Shown: positions 22,355-36,761, counted from the stretch's first letter. The stretch: DNA of 64,000 nt from an uncultured Bacilli bacterium (GCA_947625505.1 CANQON010000006.1:3903-67902); one strand, 5' to 3'. A program made the numbers and translations. The notes: a model not told the origin generated them from the letters alone.

Positions 22355-22580
22355 GAAAAAACGAAGAACAAGAGGAGTAAATTAACTAGTAGTTAAAAGA
22401 GATGAAAAGTCATTGGCTGAAAGCTTTTCTTAATGAAGATTAATTGAAGGTAGCTTGGGAGTTGTATATCTAAGTAAATAGGATATAACGTTAACTGCGT
22501 TAAAGTATGAGTGCATAATAAGTATTATGAAATAGGATGGTACCACGTGTAAGCGTTCCTATACATAATACTTTTTTGTT
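22355..22580 (+). promoter_or_regulatory. T-box riboswitch (Val specifier)
   Basis: AGAGA and GGCTGAA stem I motifs, specifier GAAG-GTA-GC (GTA 22450-22452 = Val), T-box GGATGGTACCACG, terminator AGTATTATG..TAGGA / TCCTA..CATAATACT plus T run. Confidence 0.9.
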
Positions 22581-22646: not shown

Positions 22647-25172
22647 ATGTTAGAAGCAAAATATAATCACAAAAAGGTAGAAGAAGGAAAGTATAATAAT
22701 TGGAAACAAAAAGGATACTTTGAAAGTGGCGATTTAAGTAAAAAGCCATATTGTATAGTTATTCCTCCTCCTAATGTTACAGGTAAATTACATTTAGGAC
22801 ATGCTTGGGATACAACTTTACAAGACATATTAATTCGTTATAAGAAAATGAATGGATATGATGTATTATGGTTACCTGGTACTGATCATGCTGCTATCGC
22901 AACCGAAGCACGTGTTGTAGGCAAACTAAAACAAGAAGGAATCGACAAGTATGAATTAGGTCGTGATAAATTCTTAGATGCTTGTTGGGATTGGACACAT
23001 AAGTATGCAGGTAATATTCGTGAACAATGGGCTAAACTAGGTCTTACTTTAGATTATCGTAAAGAAGCTTTTACCTTAGATGAAAATTTAACACGAGCTG
23101 TTAAAAAAGTATTTGTTGATTTATATAATGAAGGACTAATATACCGTGGAGAACGTATTATTAACTGGGATCCTGTTGCGAAGACAGCCTTATCTAATGA
23201 AGAGGTATTCTATAAAGATGATGAAGGTGCTTTCTATCATTTAAAATACTTTATTGAAGATTCTGATGAATATCTTGATGTTGCGACAACACGTCCAGAA
23301 ACTTTATTTGGAGATACAGCTGTAGCTGTTAATCCTAAAGATAAACGTTATAAACATTTAATAGGTAAACATGTTGTTTTACCTGTTGTTAATAAATTAA
23401 TTCCTATTGTTGGAGATGAACATGCTGATCCTGAATTTGGTACAGGGGTAGTTAAGATTACACCTGCTCATGATCCTAATGACTTTGAAGTAGGTAATCG
23501 TCATAACTTAGAACGTATTGTTGTTATGAATGAAGACGCTACAATGAATGAAAATGCAGGTAAGTATGTTGGTATGAGTCGTGAAGCTTGTCGTGAAGCT
23601 TTAGTAAATGATTTAAAAGAAGAGGGAATCTTAATAAGTATTGAACCTATGGTACATAGTGTTGGACATAGTGAAAGAACCGATGCTGTTGTAGAGCCTT
23701 ACTTATCTAAGCAATGGTTTGTTAAGATGCGTCCTTTAGCAGATCGTGTTTTAAAGAATCAAAAAGATAAAAAGAATAAAGTAAATTTTGTACCTACACA
23801 TTATGAAAAAATAATGAATCATTGGATGGAAATAACTTATGATTGGTGTATATCACGTCAATTATGGTGGGGACATCGTATTCCTGCTTGGTATAAAGGT
23901 GATGATATATATGTAGGTATAGAGCCTCCTAAAGGTGATGGATGGGTACAAGATAATGATGTATTAGATACATGGTTTAGTAGTGCTTTATGGCCATTTG
24001 CTACTTTAGGATGGCCTAATGAAACGGATGATTATAAAAGATATTATCCTAATGATGTTTTAGTAACAGGATATGATATTATTCCATTCTGGGTTAATAG
24101 AATGACTTTCCAAGGATTAAAGTTTACAGGTAAAAGACCTTTTAAAGATTGTTTAATACATGGATTAATTCGTGATAAGAATGGTGTTAAGATGAGTAAA
24201 TCCTTAGGTAATGGTGTTGATCCTATGGATGTTATAGATGAATATGGATGTGATGCTTTAAGGTTCTTCTTAACTACTAATTCAGCTCCAGGCGCTGATT
24301 TAAGATATGATGATGAAAAAGTTAAATCAGCATGGAATTTTATTAATAAATTATGGAATGCCTCTAGATTTGTTTTAATGAATCTTGAAGGATTTACTAC
24401 TAAAGATTATACTTTAAAGAACTTATCTTTACCTGATAAATGGATGCTAAATAAATTAAATAAAACAGTTAAAGAAGTAAGAAAAAATATGGATTCATAT
24501 GATTTCCATAATGTAGGTAATGCTTTATATTCATTTATTTGGGATGATTTCTGTGATTGGTATATTGAGTTATCTAAGAGTGATATGTCTAATACTAATA
24601 AGAGTGTTTTACTTAAAGTATTAACCGATATTGTTAAAATGTTACATCCTTTTATGCCATATGTAACTGAAGAGATATATTTAATGTTACCTATTAAAGA
24701 TCAAGAATCTATTATGTTAGAAAATTATCCTAAAGCTACAAAGAATAAATATGATGAAGAAGAAGATACTTTAGATAAGATTATTGAAGATATTATCGCT
24801 ATTAGAAATTTAAAAGCAACTAATAATATTACAAAACAAGCTAAGGTTAAATATGAAGTAGACTCTTCTTTAGAAACAATTTATACATCACAATTAAAGA
24901 TTAAAGAAGAAAATATTTTACAAGATAATAACGAATATTTAACAAGTAATTATAAATCTAAATATATTAATATTACTTATTATTATGAAGGTACTAAAGA
25001 AGATGAAAGCCGTAAAGAAGAAGAAATTAAAAAACTTGAAGCTTCTATTGAACGCCGTGAAAAATTATTAAGTAATGAAAATTATGTATCTAAAGCTCCT
25101 TTAAATATTGTTGAAGCTGATCGTAAGAAATTAGCTGAAGAAAAAGAAAAATTAGCTATATTAAAGGGTTAA
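22647..25172 (+). CDS. valS: Valine--tRNA ligase
   Basis: [41 protein letters not shown]-terminal coiled coil. Confidence 0.98.
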
Positions 25173-26526: not shown

Positions 26527-27297
26527 ATGATATGTAAGAATTGTGGAAGAGAAGTTAATGGTCCTTTTTGTACTAGTTGTGGAACACCAGTAGATACTAA
26601 TACCCCAAATATGAATGCCACTACTACTCCAGTAGCGCCTACACCAGTTATGAATCAGGTACCTCAAACTCCAGTTATGAATCAAGTAAACCCTAATATG
26701 GGTAATCAAATGCCTCAATATAATCAACCAATGTATACTACTCCTTATACAGCTCCTAAAAAGAATAATACAGGTTTAATAATAGCGATTGTTGTCGTTG
26801 CTGTAGTATTGTTAGGAATTGTTGGAATTAGTATGGCATCACATGGTGATGATAGTGAGGTAACAACTAATGAAAGCGGTGAAAAAGTATCTGAAGGAGT
26901 ATCTATCACAGTAGATGGCTATACTTATAAAGTACCTAGTCGTTATACAGCTAAAGAATCTAATGGTAGATTACAATTAACTAGTAAAGATAATGTTGAT
27001 TTAGCTTTAATTGATATTGTTGATGGTGATTTTAATAATATTAGAAATAATCAAACATATATTAAAAACTACTTAACAACTTCAGGATATACTGTTTTAA
27101 ACATTGGTAATAGAGTTGTAGGTGGAATGGATTTTGTTACTATTGAAGTATCTCAAAATGGACAAAAAATGTTAATGGGATATGCTAAATTCAATAGTAG
27201 TAAAGTATTCTTAGTAACAGTTGGTAATACAAGTTATACAATTGATTACGACTTACTTGCTGATGTTGTTCCAATAATGCGTTCAGCTCAAAGCTAA
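26527..27297 (+). CDS. Zinc-ribbon membrane protein, paralog with a different extracellular domain
   Basis: CKNCG..FCTSCG, near-identical TPVMNQVNPNMG..PQYNQ linker, one TM helix. Confidence 0.7.
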   Translation: MICKNCGREVNGPFCTSCGTPVDTNTPNMNATTTPVAPTPVMNQVPQTPVMNQVNPNMGNQMPQYNQPMYTTPYTAPKKNNTGLIIAIVVVAVVLLGIVGISMASHGDDSEVTTNESGEKVSEGVSITVDGYTYKVPSRYTAKESNGRLQLTSKDNVDLALIDIVDGDFNNIRNNQTYIKNYLTTSGYTVLNIGNRVVGGMDFVTIEVSQNGQKMLMGYAKFNSSKVFLVTVGNTSYTIDYDLLADVVPIMRSAQS

Positions 27298-27358: not shown

Positions 27359-29359
<2,001 letters not shown>

Positions 29360-29399
29360 TATGATTATATTTAGAACATGATGGGTGTGTGGAAGTTTT

Positions 29400-31613
29400 A
29401 TGATAGAAGAATGGAATGGTTTTAAAGGTACTAAATGGCAACAAACGATTGATGTTGAAGACTTTATTATCAATAATTATAAAGAGTATACAGGAAGTTC
29501 AGAATTCTTAAAAGGAATAAGTAGAAAAACAAGTCGCGTTTGGAGTAGATGTCAAAAACTATTAGATAAAGAGGATATAACCAAAGTATTAGATGTAGAA
29601 ACTAGTTATTTTTCTAGTATTAATGGTTTTGAACAAGGATACATTGATAAAAAAAATGAAGTAATCGTTGGATTACAAACTGATGAACCTTTAAAACAAT
29701 TTATTAATCCCTTTGTAGCTTTAGATTCTTCTTTAGAAGCTTCTAAAAATTATGGATATCGTTTTGATCGTAATATGGAAGAACATTTTAGAGAGTTCGC
29801 TATATCACATGAAGAAGCTACAGAAGCATCTTATACTAAAGAGATAAAAAAATATCGTGAAGTTCATTTATTAGAGGGATTACCTGATAATTATGGAAGG
29901 GGATTTATTGTCTCTGATTTTAGACGTTTACCTTTATATGGAGCTGATTATTTAATAGCGCGTAAAGAACATGATTTAGATCGTTTAAGACGTGATATTA
30001 ATTATTCTATTGTACGTACAAGAGAAGAAGTAATAAAACAAATTGATGCTTTAAAGAAGATAAAAGATATGGCTAAGCATTACGATATTGATATATCAAG
30101 GCCTGCTAAAAATACTAAAGAAGCTATTCAATGGTTATATTTTGCTTATTTAGGAGCTAGTAAAGATACTTGCAGTGCTTCTTTACCAGTAGGAAATAAT
30201 ACACCATTTTTAGATATTTATATTAATAGAGATTTAGAAAATGGTAGTATTAAAGAAGAAGAAGTGCAAGAATTAATTGATCAATTTATTATTAAATTAC
30301 GTTTAATAAGATTTTTGCATACACCTGAATATAAAAATTATTTTCCAGGTAAGAATCCTTTGATTACTGAAGTAATTGGGGGATTATATAATGGTAAATC
30401 GCTTATTACTCAAACAGCATATCGCTTCTTAAACTCCTTAGAAAATTTAGGAACATATCCTGTACCTAGTTTTGCTATTTTATGGAGTTCGAAATTACCA
30501 ATTAATTTTAAAAGATATTGTGCTAAAACTATGTTAAGTCATCATACTATTGAGTTATTAAATGCTGATAAGTTAGATAGTTTTAATTATGCTGTTACGG
30601 GTTTAGCAGGTTTATCTAAGATAGGTAAACAAATTGATTACTATGGTGGTAGTTGTAATTTACCTAAAGCTTTATTATATGCTATTAATGAAGGTAAAGA
30701 TGAAATAACAGGAGAACTTGTTATTCCTGATATAGAACCTATTAAGGATGATGTTTTAAATTATCCAATAGTTGTTAAAAACTTTGTTAAAGTATTAAGT
30801 AAATTAATATGTATTTATGCTGATGCTTTAAATATTGTGCATTATATGCATGATAAGTATGCTTATGAAGGATCTTTAATGGCATTTAATGATACAGTAG
30901 TTGAAAGATATATTACTTTTGGTATAGCAGGATTATCTACTTTAGTAGATTCTTTATGTGCTATTAGATATGCTAAAGTCCATGTAAATCGTGATGATAA
31001 AGGTTTAACTACGGATTTTAATATTGATGGTTCTTTCCCTAAATTTGGTAATAATCAAGATGAAGCTGATCGTATTGCTAGTGATATTATTAAATTATTT
31101 AATAAAGAATTACGTAATCATCATATGTATCGAAATGCTAAAATAAAAGTTGGTGTTGAAACAGTAGGATTAAATATGGTATATGGTAATAATACAGGAT
31201 CAACACCTAATGGACGCTTTAAAGGAGTACCTTATGCTATAGGAGCATGTCCTGTAGGAAATGCCGATACTAAAGGACTTTTATCTTCTTTAAAGAGTGT
31301 TATGAAATTACCAAAAGAACTATGTACTAATGGTATTATTACGACAGTTAATATTAGTGGTAATGCTTTAGGTAGTAAAAAGAGCGAAAGAGCAGAGAAT
31401 ATTATAGGCTTATTAGATAGCTACTTTAATCAAAATGGTAGTCAGTTAGAAATAAATATCATTGATAAAAGTACTATTACTTCAGCTATAAAAGATGATC
31501 GTAATTATACTAATTTAGTTCTTCATAATGGGGGATTTGCTGTAAGATTTAAAGATATAGATAATAATTTATCTAATGATTTAGCTGAAAGAACATTTCA
31601 TGAGGTATTATAA
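29400..31613 (+). CDS. Pyruvate formate-lyase (PflB) homolog lacking catalytic residues
   Basis: PFL scaffold motifs IDVEDFI..NY, IVGLQTDEPLK, GLPDNYGRG, EAIQWLYFAYL, HYMHDKYAYE, GSTPNGR, RTFH; Cys-Cys replaced by Gly-Leu and RVSGY by HNGGF. Confidence 0.85.
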   Translation: MIEEWNGFKGTKWQQTIDVEDFIINNYKEYTGSSEFLKGISRKTSRVWSRCQKLLDKEDITKVLDVETSYFSSINGFEQGYIDKKNEVIVGLQTDEPLKQFINPFVALDSSLEASKNYGYRFDRNMEEHFREFAISHEEATEASYTKEIKKYREVHLLEGLPDNYGRGFIVSDFRRLPLYGADYLIARKEHDLDRLRRDINYSIVRTREEVIKQIDALKKIKDMAKHYDIDISRPAKNTKEAIQWLYFAYLGASKDTCSASLPVGNNTPFLDIYINRDLENGSIKEEEVQELIDQFIIKLRLIRFLHTPEYKNYFPGKNPLITEVIGGLYNGKSLITQTAYRFLNSLENLGTYPVPSFAILWSSKLPINFKRYCAKTMLSHHTIELLNADKLDSFNYAVTGLAGLSKIGKQIDYYGGSCNLPKALLYAINEGKDEITGELVIPDIEPIKDDVLNYPIVVKNFVKVLSKLICIYADALNIVHYMHDKYAYEGSLMAFNDTVVERYITFGIAGLSTLVDSLCAIRYAKVHVNRDDKGLTTDFNIDGSFPKFGNNQDEADRIASDIIKLFNKELRNHHMYRNAKIKVGVETVGLNMVYGNNTGSTPNGRFKGVPYAIGACPVGNADTKGLLSSLKSVMKLPKELCTNGIITTVNISGNALGSKKSERAENIIGLLDSYFNQNGSQLEINIIDKSTITSAIKDDRNYTNLVLHNGGFAVRFKDIDNNLSNDLAERTFHEVL

Positions 31614-32206
31614 TGAAAGGTACTATTAGTTCAATTAATCCTATGAGTTTTGATTCAGGCCCAGGAATACGTGTTAGTGTTGAATTAAATAATACTAATG
31701 AATTAAGTTTAACACCTAATGAAATGGTAGATCGTATTCGTAAGTTTCGTCCTTATATAGGACCTGATGGTGGAGGAGTTACTTTCTATGGAAATCTTTT
31801 TGAACAAAAGGATTTCTTAAAAGAAACTTGTTTAATATCTCATAAAGCAGGTATTAATACATGTATTATAACTAATGGTATAGATTATGTAGACGATGAA
31901 GCTCTATTTAAACATATAGATTTAGTTATTTTAGATATAATAAGTTTGCCAATGTATAATTATAATGATATAGCTATTGAAGATCTTATGAATATCAATC
32001 GTTTTCTTAATAAATTAGAAGAAAAACAAATTAATTTATGGATTAAGCAAAAAATATATAAAGATAAAAATGATAATGAAGAATATATTAATGCCTTAAA
32101 AAAATTTTTAAATATGTTTCATAATATAAATGATATTGAATTAATAGGTATTGATGTAGATTCTAATCGATTAAATTATTTAGAAAGTTTATTAAAGGAG
32201 GTATAG
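31613..32206 (+). CDS. PFL-activating enzyme (PflA) homolog lacking the radical-SAM motif
   Basis: MKGTISSI..SFDSGPGIR, GGGVTF, GINTCIITNG, DLVILDI; no CxxxCxxC and no GGE; TAATG coupling to the upstream gene. Confidence 0.8.
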   Translation: MKGTISSINPMSFDSGPGIRVSVELNNTNELSLTPNEMVDRIRKFRPYIGPDGGGVTFYGNLFEQKDFLKETCLISHKAGINTCIITNGIDYVDDEALFKHIDLVILDIISLPMYNYNDIAIEDLMNINRFLNKLEEKQINLWIKQKIYKDKNDNEEYINALKKFLNMFHNINDIELIGIDVDSNRLNYLESLLKEV

Positions 32207-32207
32207 T

Positions 32208-33335
32208 GTGAAAAGATATCGTTTTATTGCTATCTTATATTTTGTTATCATGGCATATTTTGTTTTAACAAGTAAAAGTTTAACAATGTACGCTACCACA
32301 TTAGATTATGTAGGATGTGGATCAGCTAGTGGAATACCTAAACCTATACCTCAATTAACAACAGTAGCGTATACTTTATTAATTGTTGGAACACCTCTTA
32401 TTTTAATAACTTTTTCTATTGTTGCTTTGATTAAAGCTATATCTGGTGGTAAAGCTGATGAAATATTAAAAGCTAAAACTAAATTATTTAAAAAATTTAT
32501 GGCAGCAGGAATAATCTTTTTATTATCAGCTATTGTTCAATTTGTTATAGGTAGAGTAACGACAACGGTAGATGATGAAAGTACAGTAACAGCTTGTCTT
32601 CAATGCTTTCTATACTATAGTGATCAGAACTGTTATAAATCAAGTTCAGGTAATGGTGTAACAGAAGATACTACTAATCCTACCTATGATGATAAAGCCC
32701 AACCTACAACAGGGAATCGTGATAAAACACCTTCAGGTAATGTAAGTAATGGAACTATTAAGAAAGGTTCTAAAACTATTTTAGTAGGAGATTCAAGAAC
32801 AGTAGGAATTTGCCAACTATCTTCCTCTGGTTATTATTCAGGAGCATGCCGTGATTACAATGCTGTATGTCAAGGTGGTATGGGATATAATTGGTTTAAA
32901 GCAACAGGGGTAGCAGGAGTAAATGGTTTATTAGAGCAAAACGCTAATACAAGACATAATATTGTTATTTTACTAGGTGTAAATGATATATCTAATACTG
33001 AATATTGGGCTGATAATGCTGTCAAAGAATATATGGGAATTATAACTGAGCATGCTAATGGAGATTGGAAAAATCAAAATATTATTTTTGCTTCTATTAC
33101 TCCAATTGGGGCAGAACAAACTGGAGGGAAGTGGCCTGTAAGTCAAACAAATATTAATTACTTTAATACCCAAATACGTTCTAAAATAGCTTCATCAGGA
33201 TTAAGTAATGTAAGTTATTGTGATATTAGTACAGGAATAGACTTAAATGGTAAATTTGCAGGAGATAATTTACATTATACAGGAGCAGGATATACAACTA
33301 TGTATAACCAAATAGTTAATAAGTGCTTAAAGTAG
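32208..33335 (+). CDS. Membrane protein: pilin-like two-TM hairpin fused to SGNH/GDSL hydrolase
   Basis: N-terminal anchor, TM-KAISGGKADEILKAK-TM, S/T/G linker, then GDS (LVGDSRT), G, GxND (LGVND) and DxxH (DNLH) blocks. Confidence 0.7.
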   Translation: MKRYRFIAILYFVIMAYFVLTSKSLTMYATTLDYVGCGSASGIPKPIPQLTTVAYTLLIVGTPLILITFSIVALIKAISGGKADEILKAKTKLFKKFMAAGIIFLLSAIVQFVIGRVTTTVDDESTVTACLQCFLYYSDQNCYKSSSGNGVTEDTTNPTYDDKAQPTTGNRDKTPSGNVSNGTIKKGSKTILVGDSRTVGICQLSSSGYYSGACRDYNAVCQGGMGYNWFKATGVAGVNGLLEQNANTRHNIVILLGVNDISNTEYWADNAVKEYMGIITEHANGDWKNQNIIFASITPIGAEQTGGKWPVSQTNINYFNTQIRSKIASSGLSNVSYCDISTGIDLNGKFAGDNLHYTGAGYTTMYNQIVNKCLK

Positions 33336-33355
33336 CAAGAAATTGCTACTTTTTT
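33329..33355 (+). terminator. Rho-independent terminator
   Basis: AAAGTAGCAA-GAAA-TTGCTACTTT plus T run. Confidence 0.8.
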
Positions 33356-33389: not shown

Positions 33390-36300
33390 ATGAAGAAGAC
33401 AATAACAGTTGATGGTAATGAAGCTTGTAGTTATACATCATATATGTTTACGGAGGTAGCAGGAATATATCCTATTACACCTTCTAGTCCTATGGCAGAA
33501 CATGTCGATGAGATGAGTTCTAAAGCAGTAAATTTATTTAATAATCCTGTTAAAGTAGTAGAAATGCAAAGTGAAGCAGGAGCTGCTGGCTTTATTCATG
33601 GTTCATTAAAAGCAGGATGCTTAACAACTACTTTTACAGCTAGTCAAGGATTATTACTTATGATACCTAATATGTATAAAATAGCAGGAGAGATGCTTCC
33701 AGGGGTTATTCATGTGGCAGCTCGTGCTTTATCTACACATGCTTTAAGTATCTTTGGTGATCATCAAGATATATATGCTTGTCGTATGACAGGTTTTGCG
33801 ATGTTAGCATCTTCATCAGTTCAAGATGCTGCTTATTTAAGTGCAGTCGCACATTTATCTAGTATTAAAGCTAGTCTTCCTTTTATGCATTTCTTTGATG
33901 GCTTTAGAACTAGTCATGAAATTCAAAAGATAGAAGTATTGCAAGCAAGTGATTATCAAGATATGCTAGATTATGAAGCTCTAGATAGATTCCGTCGTCG
34001 TGCTTTAAATCCTCATCATCCAAAAACGCATGGTACAGCGCAAAATGAAGATATTTATTTTCAAACAACGGAAGCTCGTAATATTTATTATGATAGATTA
34101 CCTGATATCGTTAATGATTATATGGAAAAAATAAATACGAAAGCAGGTACTGATTATAAACCATTTAATTATTATGGTAGTGAGACAGCATCTAAAGTTA
34201 TTGTTGCGATGGGTTCAGTATGTGAAACAATTAAAGAAGTAATTGATGCTAAAAAAGATGTAGGATTAATAGAAGTACATTTATATCGTCCATTTAGCTC
34301 TAAATATTTATTAAATGTATTACCTAGTACAGTTAAAAAAATAGCTGTATTAGATCGTACTAAAGAAGCAGGTAGTAATGGAGAACCTTTATATTTAGAT
34401 ATCGTTAATGCTTTAAAAGGTAAAAATATTGAAATAGTAGGTGGAAGATATGGTTTAGCTAGTAAGAATACAACACCTAGTGATATTAATGCGGTATATG
34501 AGATGTTAGATAATCCTAAAAATAACTTTACTTTAGGTATTGTTGATGATGTAACACATCTTAGTTTAGAACCTATAAATATTGAAACAAAAAAATGCAA
34601 TGAGTGGTTATTCTATGGATATGGTTCTGATGGTATGGTAGGAGCTTCTAAATCCATTATTAAATTAATTGGTGATAATACCGATGACTATGTACAAGGA
34701 TATTTCCAATATGATTCTAAAAAATCAGGAGGAGTAACTTGTAGTCATTTAAGATTTAGTACAGATAAGATAAGATCAACTTATTATGTAATGAAACCTT
34801 CATTAGTTGTTATAACAAAAGATAGTTATTTAGAAGATTATGATCTATTAAGTGATCTTGATGATAGCGCTACTGTGATAATCAATACTATTCATAATGA
34901 AGAAAAAATAAATAAAATGTTAAATAACCATCTAAAGAAATTATTATTAGATAAACATGCAAAAGTATATTTAATTAATGCTTATGATTTAGCTGAACAA
35001 GTAGGATTAAAAGGTAAAATTAGTACGATTATGGAAAGCACTATTATGTATTTAACTAGTGTTATGCCTTACGATGAAGCATTAAAATATATTGAAGATG
35101 GTATTAAGAAAAAGTTTGCTAAAAAAGGCGAAAGTGTCGTTAATGCTAATCTTGAAGCTATTAAACTTGCTACTACTAACTTAAAAGAAATAACAATTGA
35201 TAATAATTTTAGTGATAAGGAAGAAGAAAAAACATCATTAGTTAAAACGATTATGAAAAGGAAAGGTGAGTCTTTAAAAACATCTGATTTTGTAAGACGT
35301 GCTGATGGAGTTTTTGAAAGTGGAACTAGTGTTTTAGAAAAGAGATATATTAGTGATGTTGTACCTGCATGGATAAGTAGTAATTGTTCTAATTGTAATC
35401 AATGTTCATTATATTGTCCACATGGTGTTATAAGACCTTTCATATTGGATGAAGAAGAATATAATAATGCTCCAGAAGAAATAAAGAAACGTGCTGTTAA
35501 GGCTATAGGTATGGATTATTATTATATTATTAGTGCTTCAGTAGCTGATTGTACAGGATGTGGTGTATGTGTAAGTGTATGTCCTGGTATGAAAGGCAAT
35601 AAAGCTCTTACAATGGATAAAATAAATCCTAAAGAACAAGAAGTATTTAATTATCTTGATAAGAATATTAAACCTAAAGATGTAGGTAATATCTTTACTG
35701 TTAAAAATAGTCAATTTAATAAACCTAAATTTGCTTTTTCAGGTGCTTGTGCAGGATGTGGAGAAACAGCTTATATTAAATTGTTAACACAATTATTTGG
35801 GGAACATTTAATTATTAGTAATGCGACAGGATGTTCTTCTATCTACGGAGGAAGTGCTCCTACAACACCTTATACTATTCCATGGGCTAGTAGCTTATTT
35901 GAAGATAATGCAGAATATGGATATGGTATGCTAATAGCTAACAATGTTATACGTACGCGTATAGCAGGTATTATGGAAAAGAATATGGATAATGAAAATA
36001 GTGAACTATTTAAAGAATGGCTAGATAATTCTAATAGTTATGAACATACAAAGCATGTTTATGATAACTTAACAGACAATATACCAGAAGAATTAAAAGA
36101 ATTAAAAGACTATATTACTGTTCGTAATATCTGGTGTATTGGAGGCGATGGATGGGCTTATGATATTGGTTATGGAGGAATAGACCATGTCTTAGCTAGT
36201 CGTGATAATATTAAAATATTAGTCCTTGATAGCCAAGTATATTCTAATACAGGAGGACAATCATCTAAAGCTAGCCCTAAAGGCGCTATTGCATCCTTTG

Positions 36301-36761
36301 CTTCAATGGGTAAGAAAACAAATAAAAAGGATTTAGCTCGTATCGCTATGTCTTATCCAGATGTTTATGTAGCCCAAGTATCATTAGGAGCTAATCCTAT
36401 GCAAGTAGTAAAAGCTTTTAAAGAAGCTAATGAATATGATGGTCCTGCTATTATTATAGCTTATACTCCATGTATTTCTCATGGCATTAAGGGTGGAATG
36501 GAACATAGTGTTGATATGGAAAAATTAGCTACTAATTCAGGATATTTCTTAACCTTTAGAAGACATCCAATAGATGGATTTACTTTAGATAGTAAAAATG
36601 TTAATTTTGACTTATATGAAGAATTCTTAAATAGTCAAACAAGATATAATATGTTAAAAGTAATTAATCCTGATAAAGCTAATGATTTATTACAAGCTAA
36701 TAAGGATAATGCTATTAAGACTTATAATTACTATGAAGAATTAGGAAAAAGTAATCAATAG
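33390..36761 (+). CDS. nifJ: Pyruvate:ferredoxin/flavodoxin oxidoreductase (PFOR)
   Basis: DGNEA, YPITPSS, EMQSEAGAAG, FFDGFRTSHE, two ferredoxin CxxCxxCxxxCP motifs, GACAGCGE, GGDGWAYDIG, YSNTGGQ. Confidence 0.97.
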   Translation: MKKTITVDGNEACSYTSYMFTEVAGIYPITPSSPMAEHVDEMSSKAVNLFNNPVKVVEMQSEAGAAGFIHGSLKAGCLTTTFTASQGLLLMIPNMYKIAGEMLPGVIHVAARALSTHALSIFGDHQDIYACRMTGFAMLASSSVQDAAYLSAVAHLSSIKASLPFMHFFDGFRTSHEIQKIEVLQASDYQDMLDYEALDRFRRRALNPHHPKTHGTAQNEDIYFQTTEARNIYYDRLPDIVNDYMEKINTKAGTDYKPFNYYGSETASKVIVAMGSVCETIKEVIDAKKDVGLIEVHLYRPFSSKYLLNVLPSTVKKIAVLDRTKEAGSNGEPLYLDIVNALKGKNIEIVGGRYGLASKNTTPSDINAVYEMLDNPKNNFTLGIVDDVTHLSLEPINIETKKCNEWLFYGYGSDGMVGASKSIIKLIGDNTDDYVQGYFQYDSKKSGGVTCSHLRFSTDKIRSTYYVMKPSLVVITKDSYLEDYDLLSDLDDSATVIINTIHNEEKINKMLNNHLKKLLLDKHAKVYLINAYDLAEQVGLKGKISTIMESTIMYLTSVMPYDEALKYIEDGIKKKFAKKGESVVNANLEAIKLATTNLKEITIDNNFSDKEEEKTSLVKTIMKRKGESLKTSDFVRRADGVFESGTSVLEKRYISDVVPAWISSNCSNCNQCSLYCPHGVIRPFILDEEEYNNAPEEIKKRAVKAIGMDYYYIISASVADCTGCGVCVSVCPGMKGNKALTMDKINPKEQEVFNYLDKNIKPKDVGNIFTVKNSQFNKPKFAFSGACAGCGETAYIKLLTQLFGEHLIISNATGCSSIYGGSAPTTPYTIPWASSLFEDNAEYGYGMLIANNVIRTRIAGIMEKNMDNENSELFKEWLDNSNSYEHTKHVYDNLTDNIPEELKELKDYITVRNIWCIGGDGWAYDIGYGGIDHVLASRDNIKILVLDSQVYSNTGGQSSKASPKGAIASFASMGKKTNKKDLARIAMSYPDVYVAQVSLGANPMQVVKAFKEANEYDGPAIIIAYTPCISHGIKGGMEHSVDMEKLATNSGYFLTFRRHPIDGFTLDSKNVNFDLYEEFLNSQTRYNMLKVINPDKANDLLQANKDNAIKTYNYYEELGKSNQ

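Follow-up and report, generated by a model that had tools for sequence, protein, structure and literature searches.

We analysed a 64,000-nucleotide stretch of DNA from an uncultured Bacilli bacterium (GCA_947625505.1 CANQON010000006.1:3903-67902), hereafter the window. It carries a gene for a 197-residue descendant of the activating enzyme (activase, PflA or PFL-AE) of pyruvate formate-lyase (PFL). This protein, here called PflA*, lacks both the iron-sulfur cluster motif and the S-adenosylmethionine (SAM) motifs of activases, and its gene directly follows that of PFL*, a PFL homologue without the catalytic cysteines. The two genes lie between ligA and a pyruvate:ferredoxin oxidoreductase (PFOR) gene, together with a gene for a membrane protein (Table 1). 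An earlier analysis, made from the DNA sequence alone (the sequence-only reading), had proposed that enzyme and activase lost their chemistry together but may have kept their interface as a two-component pseudoenzyme system. Our results demonstrate that the chemistry was lost on both sides and that the pair is maintained under selection; PflA* may now serve PFL* as a non-catalytic accessory partner.

Table 1. Positions of the PflA* gene, its sequence features and the neighbouring elements, counted from the first letter of the window
Feature	Coordinates	Strand	Description
PflA*	31613..32206	+	197-aa PFL activase descendant; 197-codon open frame without cluster motif and SAM motifs
GPGIR, PflA* residues 16-20	31658..31672	+	Remnant of the activase peptide-binding loop
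Site of 16-residue in-frame gap, between residues 25 and 28	31685..31696	+	MAFFT and hhalign; CX3CX2C-HN removed
GGGVTFYGN, PflA* residues 53-61	31769..31795	+	beta2 GGGVT motif retained, GGE gone
Site of second in-frame gap, 21 columns, after residue 180	32150..32155	+	MAFFT and hhalign; canonical LPFH...KG stretch removed
PFL*	29385..31613	+	742 aa from GTG 29385; the database gene call from ATG 29400 gives 737 aa
TAATG stop/start overlap of PFL* and PflA*	31611..31615	+	Preceded at 8 nt by GAGGT, which falls in the last PFL* codons
PflA* TAG stop, one base, GTG of next gene	32204..32210	+	GGAGGT within the last PflA* codons
Membrane protein with C-terminal SGNH/GDSL hydrolase domain	32208..33335	+	375 aa; third gene of the coupled unit; weak Pfam GDSL hits
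Terminator-like hairpin	33329..33352	+	10-bp stem, then T run; ends the unit before PFOR; consensus scan only
ligA (NAD-dependent DNA ligase)	27377..29359	+	Conserved gene upstream of the dead pair
PFOR (nifJ-type pyruvate:ferredoxin oxidoreductase)	33390..36761	+	Conserved downstream flank

PflA* is an activase homologue with two in-frame deletions

The sequence-only reading had quoted two stretches of the PflA* translation and reported that about 15 residues, including all three cluster cysteines, were missing in frame. The translation contains MKGTISSINPMSFDSGPGIRVSVELNNTNELSLTP and GPDGGGVTFYGNLF, matching the quoted strings, and GPGIRVSVELNNTNELSLTP and GGGVTFYGNL were both confirmed in the frame of the gene, whose G+C content is 24%. 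We aligned the PflA* family (40 sequences, alignment A2) with 17 canonical activases (alignment A4). Profile-profile comparison with hhalign (probability 100%, E 4e-48) revealed a clean gap of 16 columns opposite the canonical stretch QGCxLRCxYCHNPxTW, and MAFFT placed the same gap; the reported loss is therefore correct. A second clean gap, of 21 columns beyond the last core strand and opposite canonical LPFHxLGxxKYxKLGIxYxLxDxP, was found by hhalign in agreement with MAFFT and had been missed in the earlier analysis. Contigs from a different study's run span positions 31577-31916 and contain two substitutions and no indels. As these independent contigs show no indels, the deletion is not an assembly artefact.

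Other activase motifs survive. The xGPGxR motif, which had been described as kept, is present as GPGxR in 40 of the 40 aligned members, with G16, P17, G18 and R20 invariant; the residue before it in the window protein, equivalent to Asp16 of PFL-AE, is Ser. Of the GGGVT motif, G54, G55 and T57 are invariant across the family alignment. The GGE motif was correctly called lost, since the window protein reads YGN-L in its place and none of the 40 members contains GGE. The peptide-binding region of canonical PFL-AE comprises residues 10-20, with GPGxR inside it, and Asp16 and Asn38 are reported as the anchors of the Gly734 loop (PMC9326890).

Profile searches gave a consistent picture, PflA* being an activase homologue by every search. 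The best family was TIGR02493 (86.1 bits against a cut-off of 231.75), of which profile positions 41-196 of 235 were matched, and Pfam Radical_SAM reached 19.6 bits against a cut-off of 29.5. TIGR02493 was also the best hit for all 40 family members, with a best E-value of 9.8e-31. The ESM Atlas model of family member P0006, which is 57% identical to the window protein, has a pTM of 0.89 and a TM score of 0.91 to a PflA cluster over residues 1-198. Together with the hhalign result, this model indicates that PflA* shares common descent with PFL activases and keeps a partial (beta/alpha)6 barrel, the fold being drawn from the Atlas model.

Radical SAM chemistry is lost

In PFL-AE, Gly77-Gly78-Glu79 forms the GGE motif at the SAM methionine and the cluster, Asp104 and Asp129 are K+ ligands, and Lys131 and Asn106 are donors to the cluster (PMC10267522). 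Equivalent residues were identified from a HMMER alignment to E. coli PFL-AE and tallied over the 40 family members. The Lys131 equivalent is I110 in the window protein and Lys in no member. Asp129 corresponds to D108 in the window protein and is Asp in 5 of 40; Asp104 corresponds to I86 and is Glu in 25 of 40; and Asn106 corresponds to N88 and is Asn in 13 of 40. The Arg166 and Glu197 equivalents are mostly retained as K and E. Because the loop with the cysteines, the GGE motif and the equivalents of Asp104, Asp129 and Lys131 are deleted or replaced, PflA*, judged by its residues, cannot hold a cluster or SAM or form a 5'-deoxyadenosyl radical. The installation of a glycyl radical by PflA* on a cognate glycyl radical enzyme (GRE) would thus be implausible.

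PflA* would still be a radical SAM enzyme if other cysteines held the cluster, an objection that the sequence-only reading had raised against itself. A C-x2-C-x7-C pattern (positions 73, 76 and 84) is complete in 27 of the 40 members and stands beside the near-invariant His77. However, C76 is missing from the window protein, whose only cysteines are C73 and C84; across the family, C84 is the sole invariant cysteine, and one member has a single cysteine. C76 and C84 are moreover equivalent to E. coli C94 and C102, which occur in canonical activases too and are not cluster ligands. The GGE, Lys131 and Asp129 equivalents are gone, and PflA* scores far under the curated cut-offs of TIGR02493 and Radical_SAM. 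An alternative cysteine set was rejected, as C84 alone is invariant, and we consider a surviving radical SAM activity extremely improbable.

The neighbouring lyase is also dead

PFL* scored 782.7 bits against TIGR01255, below the cut-off of 994.2. In an alignment to E. coli PFL (1H16), A417, C418 and C419 are replaced by T, G and L in the window protein, R176 by F and R435 by S. In the canonical enzyme, Arg435 and Arg176 hold pyruvate, and the radical glycine has the fingerprint RVxG[FWY] (PMC13450708). This loop, RVSGY in the canonical protein, reads HNGGF in PFL*, with the Gly734 position retained. The same replacements are found in the group of PFL relatives to which PFL* belongs (group A, 38 sequences): Cys418 is Gly in 35 of 38, and Arg176 and Arg435 are replaced in all 38, whereas the loop glycine is kept in every one, with a consensus of RN[SG]G. 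As the sequence-only reading had held, PFL* is, from its lost catalytic residues and its score, a dead lyase.

The two dead genes are strictly linked

Eleven loci were available as DNA, namely the window, L004 (in genome G552), three metagenome contigs and six genomes among the relatives of G552. A Cys-less PFL lies immediately 5' of PflA* in 11 of 11, as expected from the suggestion that the two dead genes should co-occur. Thirteen further pairs of PflA* and PFL* clusters were identified indirectly, from equal longest-contig sizes. The catalytic features are thus gone from both proteins and the pairing is constant in this lineage, which agrees with the proposal that enzyme and activase lost their chemistry together.

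The genes are also coupled. The TAATG junction described by the sequence-only reading was seen in the window, the TAA stop of PFL* sharing its last A with the PflA* ATG. In at least nine of the 11 loci, the PFL* stop overlaps the PflA* ATG or ends 1 nt before it, with GAGGT or AAGGT in the last PFL* codons.

The pair arose once from a ligA-linked pflBA operon

Dead PFLs were grouped among the best 120 PFL relatives. Group A, the group of the window, has the loop RN[SG]G with glycine in 38 of 38; group B has RLSGC with glycine in 11 of 11; and group C has RYAEC, in which the glycine is replaced by Glu in 8 of 8. C418 is replaced by G in 35 of 38 group A, 11 of 11 group B and 8 of 8 group C sequences, and Arg176 and Arg435 are replaced in all three groups. 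Group C PFLs therefore possess neither the cysteines nor the loop glycine. These sister dead PFLs are still conserved, group B and C proteins being 66-100% identical to P0256 in 12 genomes.

In a FastTree phylogeny rooted with PFLs of another family, groups A, B and C formed one clade with an SH-like support of 1.0. This clade falls within the canonical PFLs of the same order, beside the PFL type of locus L041, where the genes after ligA encode an intact PFL (RVSGYAV) and an activase that is likewise intact (CPLRCLFC). Root-to-tip lengths were 1.05 for group A, 0.62 for group B and 0.72 for group C, against 0.15 for the canonical sister. PflA* also forms a single clade (support 1.0) on a stem of 0.94.

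The flanks are shared across the groups. A ligA gene lies upstream of PFL* also in L004, L038, L039, L040, L123 and all nine group B and C loci examined, and PFOR lies downstream in L004, L038, L040, L087, L089 and L093. The order ligA, PFL*, PFOR is found in eight of the nine group B and C loci (which lie within L099-L108, e.g. L099:1474-3723 and L108:1498-3753), sometimes with an open reading frame (ORF) of ~250 aa before PFOR. Among 60 relatives of G552, seven carry group A together with PflA*, 12 carry group B or C, and none carries both; all seven genomes with a group A PFL* thus have PflA*. That the two states never share a genome fits one locus in alternative states. Genome G118 (= G560), from a species placed in the genus of the window's genome, has a group B dead PFL without PflA* (L077:5667-8653) and an intact canonical pair elsewhere, and its LigA and PFOR are 74% and 73% identical to the window proteins. 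With group B in G118 and group A in the window's genome, members of a single nominal genus show different states of the locus.

Outside this sub-lineage, the dead forms were not detected. An order-wide sample of 201 genomes yielded PflA* from the window's genome and no other, and 28 of the 29 loci fetched in that sample, all from other genomes, encode canonical activases by the motif test. No group B or C PFL was present in a class-wide sample of 399 scored genomes, the best identity to a group C protein being 53%.

These results demonstrate that the pair arose once, by inactivation of a pflB-pflA operon between ligA and PFOR in a lineage of small-genome gut Bacilli. The lyase active site of this ligA-linked pflBA, for which a second intact pair mostly provided redundancy, was lost a single time. 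Of the two daughter lineages, one has an activase that subsequently shed its cluster loop, SAM site and a C-terminal stretch, yet stayed coupled and under purifying selection; the other has no activase gene left at the locus.

PflA* is a conserved family under purifying selection

A search of 5.8 billion proteins returned 52 relatives of PflA*. Of these, 49 lack CxxxCxxC; all 49 contain GPGxR and none contains GGE. These 49 protein clusters are mostly 191-201 aa long, with some of 122-145 or 170 aa, and an exhaustive search of representatives added one more 50%-identity cluster at E <= 1e-30, plus fragments. In alignment A2, 15 columns are invariant and 37 nearly so. The conserved stretches are GPGxR, RK.R within DRIRKFRPY, GG.T, HKAG..TC and SLPLYNYN, the last of which is not conserved in the canonical alignment A4.

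We then estimated the ratio of nonsynonymous to synonymous divergence (dN/dS) over the 11 loci by Nei-Gojobori counts. Synonymous sites are near saturation, and the values are upper bounds. The median for PflA* over 55 pairs was 0.42 (dS saturated). In the closest pair, L091 and L092, the ratio was 0.15 for PflA* (0.09 over residues 1-110 and 0.21 over the remainder) and 0.14 for PFL*. Stop-creating changes make up 5.4% of all single-base changes in the PflA* gene. Had the loci diverged neutrally to the extent observed, each pair should show 12-18 nonsense hits; none was seen in the 11 loci. The dN of PflA* is about twice that of the flanking ligA and PFOR. With 49 clusters of common architecture and a closest-pair dN/dS of 0.15, PflA* is not a decaying gene; the constraint on it is real yet looser than on housekeeping genes. 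Because the shortened forms retain about the first 110 residues, the N-terminal half seems to be the conserved core.

The gene might nevertheless be a slow relic, an activase that became useless once PFL* had lost its chemistry and that survives by inertia or as the carrier of the ribosome-binding site and coupling of the downstream gene. Such a course would fit the complete absence of the activase gene from group B and C loci, the truncated forms at 122-145 and ~170-181 aa, the raised dN and median dN/dS, and the Shine-Dalgarno sequence of the next gene inside the last PflA* codons. Yet the genomes are small (~1-1.7 Mb) and 49 clusters still retain an open frame of near-constant length, the closest-pair dN/dS equals that of PFL*, and the expected nonsense hits are absent. 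Selection for translation through the gene alone would leave the amino acids unconserved, whereas the family has its invariant and near-invariant columns, including SLPLYNYN, which canonical activases do not conserve. We regard a relic as unlikely, although it is the strongest of the competing explanations.

Canonical PFL systems in the same genomes

Of the 19 dead-PFL genomes among the 60 relatives, 15 carry a further PFL match. In six of the seven PflA* carriers (G552, G556, G559, G561, G566 and G570), a second pair is intact as judged by CxxxCxxCHN, DGPGIR, CC and R[VI]SGY. In the seventh, G558, no canonical PFL or PflA was found with the queries used, and PflA* is present. Neither canonical PFL nor canonical PflA was found in the window's genome (1.66 Mb, 94.85% complete).

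The co-existence of live and dead pairs in six genomes raises the possibility that PflA*, with or without PFL*, regulates the live pair or acts as a decoy, for example by competing for the glycine-loop domain or through mixed complexes resembling those of a prozyme. Cys418Ala/Cys419Ala PflB still receives the glycyl radical in vivo (PMC12338860), and cross-talk between live and dead proteins is therefore chemically conceivable. On the other hand, PflA* is kept in the window's genome and in G558, where no canonical pair was found; it is linked to PFL*, with the canonical operon elsewhere; and the peptide anchors Asp16 and Asn38 are lost. A role of this kind appears improbable, slightly more so than a relic.

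The other radical SAM hit in the window's genome is an NrdG-like gene with an intact CSHDCPGC cluster motif, located beside NrdD. Two NrdD-type anaerobic ribonucleotide reductase genes were observed, one in a 1014-aa frame (loci L110-L113: G000:C1:120274-122290 and G000:C24:11962-14601; also L002). With NrdD and an NrdG-like gene whose cluster motif is intact, the window's genome still runs one glycyl radical system.

E. coli PflB reportedly interacts with the formate channel FocA and regulates formate translocation. The window's genome has a formate/nitrite transporter (FNT) gene (L109:1501-2082; G000:C4:32848-33429, minus strand; 108 bits, over the cut-off). A FocA-gating role for the dead pair was rejected, as no FNT match was found in any of the 19 dead-PFL genomes among the 60 relatives.

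The downstream gene and other neighbours

The third gene of the unit starts one base after the PflA* stop in the window, and within 1-4 nt of it in six of the 11 loci. A membrane-protein gene follows PflA* in 10 of the 11, and the shortened PflA* forms, too, still precede it. In the 375-aa window protein, the SGNH motif set is intact (GDS194, GVND257, DNLH353). Two or three N-terminal membrane helices and a Cys-containing motif (GCG36, CLQCF130) were also observed. No significant Pfam family was assigned to the protein, T4SS_pilin being matched only at E 9.1. The N-terminal part of the protein (~170 aa) represents a family of which each related (TG-clade) genome has 2-9 matches, some of them in tandem arrays of 130-160-aa genes (e.g. 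G552:C10:32530-35803). The same membrane-protein family directly follows a group B PFL* without PflA*.

PflA* could be imagined to have taken a new partner or ligand, such as the downstream SGNH membrane hydrolase or a small molecule bound where the barrel is now empty; its place beside PFL* would then reflect no more than ancestral gene order. The tight coupling to the downstream gene in six of 11 loci would agree with this, as would the conserved motifs that are peculiar to the family and missing from canonical activases. The old pocket may also persist in part, the Asp104 equivalent being mostly Glu and the Arg166 and Glu197 equivalents mostly K and E. However, the membrane family is multi-copy and also accompanies a PFL* that has no PflA*, and Pfam and PADLOC returned no family suggesting another role for PflA*. 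The membrane protein was accordingly rejected as a specific partner of PflA*, and we rate the wider idea of a new partner or ligand as the least probable of these three alternatives. Explanations that we have not conceived hold the remainder, about a tenth.

PADLOC gave no hit for the unit's three proteins, so that membership in a defence system was rejected. A promoter scan was uninformative in DNA of 24% G+C, with 60 sites found and 78 expected. Further upstream in the window, a T-box leader was detected at 22355-22563 (+; 107.3 bits, gathering score 93), upstream of an 841-aa ORF (22647-25172). A 256-aa ORF just upstream of ligA (26527-27297, +) has an N-terminal zinc-ribbon-like CxxC...CxxC, a proline-/asparagine-rich low-complexity stretch and one membrane helix.

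Proposed role of PflA*

The results above establish that every catalytic feature is gone, that purifying selection acts, that linkage and coupling are strict and that the pair has a single origin. To account for these points, we propose that PflA* is a folded, catalytically dead descendant of the PFL activating enzyme that would be kept as a stoichiometric, non-catalytic partner of PFL*, the two being produced in fixed proportion from one message. The surviving part of the surface with which activases recognise the lyase might serve for docking, and PflA* would act on the glycine-loop domain at the C-terminus of PFL*, in the manner of the small subunits of other GREs. Since sister lineages without an activase at the locus still retain PFL*, PflA* would be an accessory, not the core of the new function. 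We hold this reading, a non-catalytic accessory partner of PFL*, with moderate confidence, and infer both the physical binding and its effect.

The sequence evidence on docking between PflA* and PFL* is mixed, as GPGxR is invariant and the anchors are lost. Indeed, several observations weigh against an accessory partner. The Asp16 equivalent is Ser in 33 of 40 members and Asp in three, and Asn38 lies inside the deleted loop. On the PFL* side, the glycine loop varies around the kept glycine, with V732 replaced by N in 34 of 38 and with Y, C, I or other residues at the Y735 position. Positions at which group A alone differs from canonical PFLs (groups B and C do not) are spread along the protein, with no concentration in the glycine-loop domain. 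An ORF with GPGxR is absent from nine of nine group B and C loci, so that no activase is present there. The glycine is nonetheless conserved in 11 of 11 group B sequences, and its retention is thus independent of PflA*; likewise, the persistence of dead PFLs in groups B and C implies that PFL* can function without need for PflA*. Fused PFL*-PflA* forms were not found among proteins of 346-2000 aa, which is weak evidence.

The C-terminal half of PflA* also evolves faster than the N-terminal half (median proportion of nonsynonymous differences, pN, 0.36 vs 0.285). Short forms of 122-145 aa (P0042-P0049 and P0051) comprise only about the first 110 residues, and others end early at ~170-181 aa (L091:1498-2037, L092:1492-2043 and L093:1507-2022; also L042:295-699). 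Both the short forms and the faster C-terminal half are compatible with partial relaxation of constraint.

The interpretation offered by the sequence-only reading is thus partly supported. The joint loss of chemistry and the constant pairing in the PflA* lineage bear it out, whereas the two-component pseudoenzyme system is weakened by the sister lineages, which keep a dead PFL without a locus activase in nine of nine loci, so that PFL* has no need of PflA*. In most relatives, the pair is also not the sole PFL system of the cell. The job of the pair is probably new and non-radical. More tentatively, the activase may have been recycled into a permanent, cofactor-free subunit that clamps the glycine-loop domain of a Cys-less PFL-fold protein in a flipped-out or half-open position, yielding a non-radical two-protein device with a new function such as metabolite sensing or binding. 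We consider this specific arrangement possible but doubtful. If true, no earlier case would exist of an enzyme that turned, together with its dedicated activator, into a pseudoenzyme pair, here at a fixed locus beside the PFOR gene.

Comparison with known systems

GREs and their activases are regarded as machinery for radical chemistry alone. That a 740-aa dead lyase is retained at one locus across a reduced-genome clade points to the PFL fold having a non-radical use. Three states were observed: a dead lyase paired with a dead activase, a dead lyase on its own, and a lone dead lyase that has also lost the glycine. They form a natural series, in which the non-chemical roles of an activase, namely docking and opening of the glycine-loop domain, can be asked about. 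According to a GRE review, the only structural insight into activase-lyase recognition comes from PFL-AE with a 7-mer peptide, and there is no structure of the complex (PMC13450708). In practical terms, these genes score under the cut-offs but would easily be counted as pflB and pflA in metabolic reconstructions from gut metagenome-assembled genomes, and formate production would then be wrongly predicted.

No database source names these PflA* and PFL* proteins. Full-text literature searches, and term searches of the accessible text of a 2026 GRE review, returned no description of a conserved Cys-less PFL or of a cluster-less activase.

The reference for comparison was canonical PFL-AE (TIGR02493; E. 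coli structures 3C8F, 3CB8 and 8FSI). The PflA* family profile matches 8FO0 and 3C8F at E 1e-19 over residues 47-200, the gene likewise lies directly after a PFL homologue, and GPGxR, the GGGVT strand and the cysteine equivalent to C102 are kept. In contrast, PflA* is 197 aa long where canonical activases have about 235-245, lacks CX3CX2C, Asn38, GGE, the Lys131 and Asp129 equivalents and the LPFH...KG stretch, and has Ser for Asp16. By its sequence, PflA* is therefore best classed as a true PFL activase homologue that fails the functional criteria of its family (CX3CX2C, GGE, the SAM and cation environment, and the score), and its paired PFL homologue fails its own.

The nearest living counterpart is the canonical pair at L041 (P0286 and P0045), which occupies the same position after ligA. 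P0045, the L041 type of activase, is the closest canonical activase found (37% identity to PflA*), and it shares the stretches LVDRIRKFRPYF, KKAGINTCI and DRIRKFRPYF with PflA*. In the PFL tree, the L041 PFL is among the canonical sequences of the next-larger clade, which encloses the dead one (node support 0.84). Unlike the dead pair, both L041 genes are intact, with CPLRCLFC and RVSGYAV.

For the role proposed here, the BSS-beta and MASS-delta subunits offer an analogy. They contact the glycyl radical domain and control its movement (PMC13450708), and PflA* might likewise be a small non-catalytic binder of a large subunit. There is no sequence relationship, however; BSS-beta and MASS-delta contain Fe-S or Fe centres and work for active radical enzymes, whereas both partners are dead here.

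A second parallel is the prozyme of trypanosome AdoMetDC. The prozyme activates its live paralogue. Like PflA* and PFL*, it is a dead duplicate maintained under selection beside live copies (PMC6221367). The difference is that the pair described here persists even where no live pair was found, and that in this case an enzyme and its activator died together.

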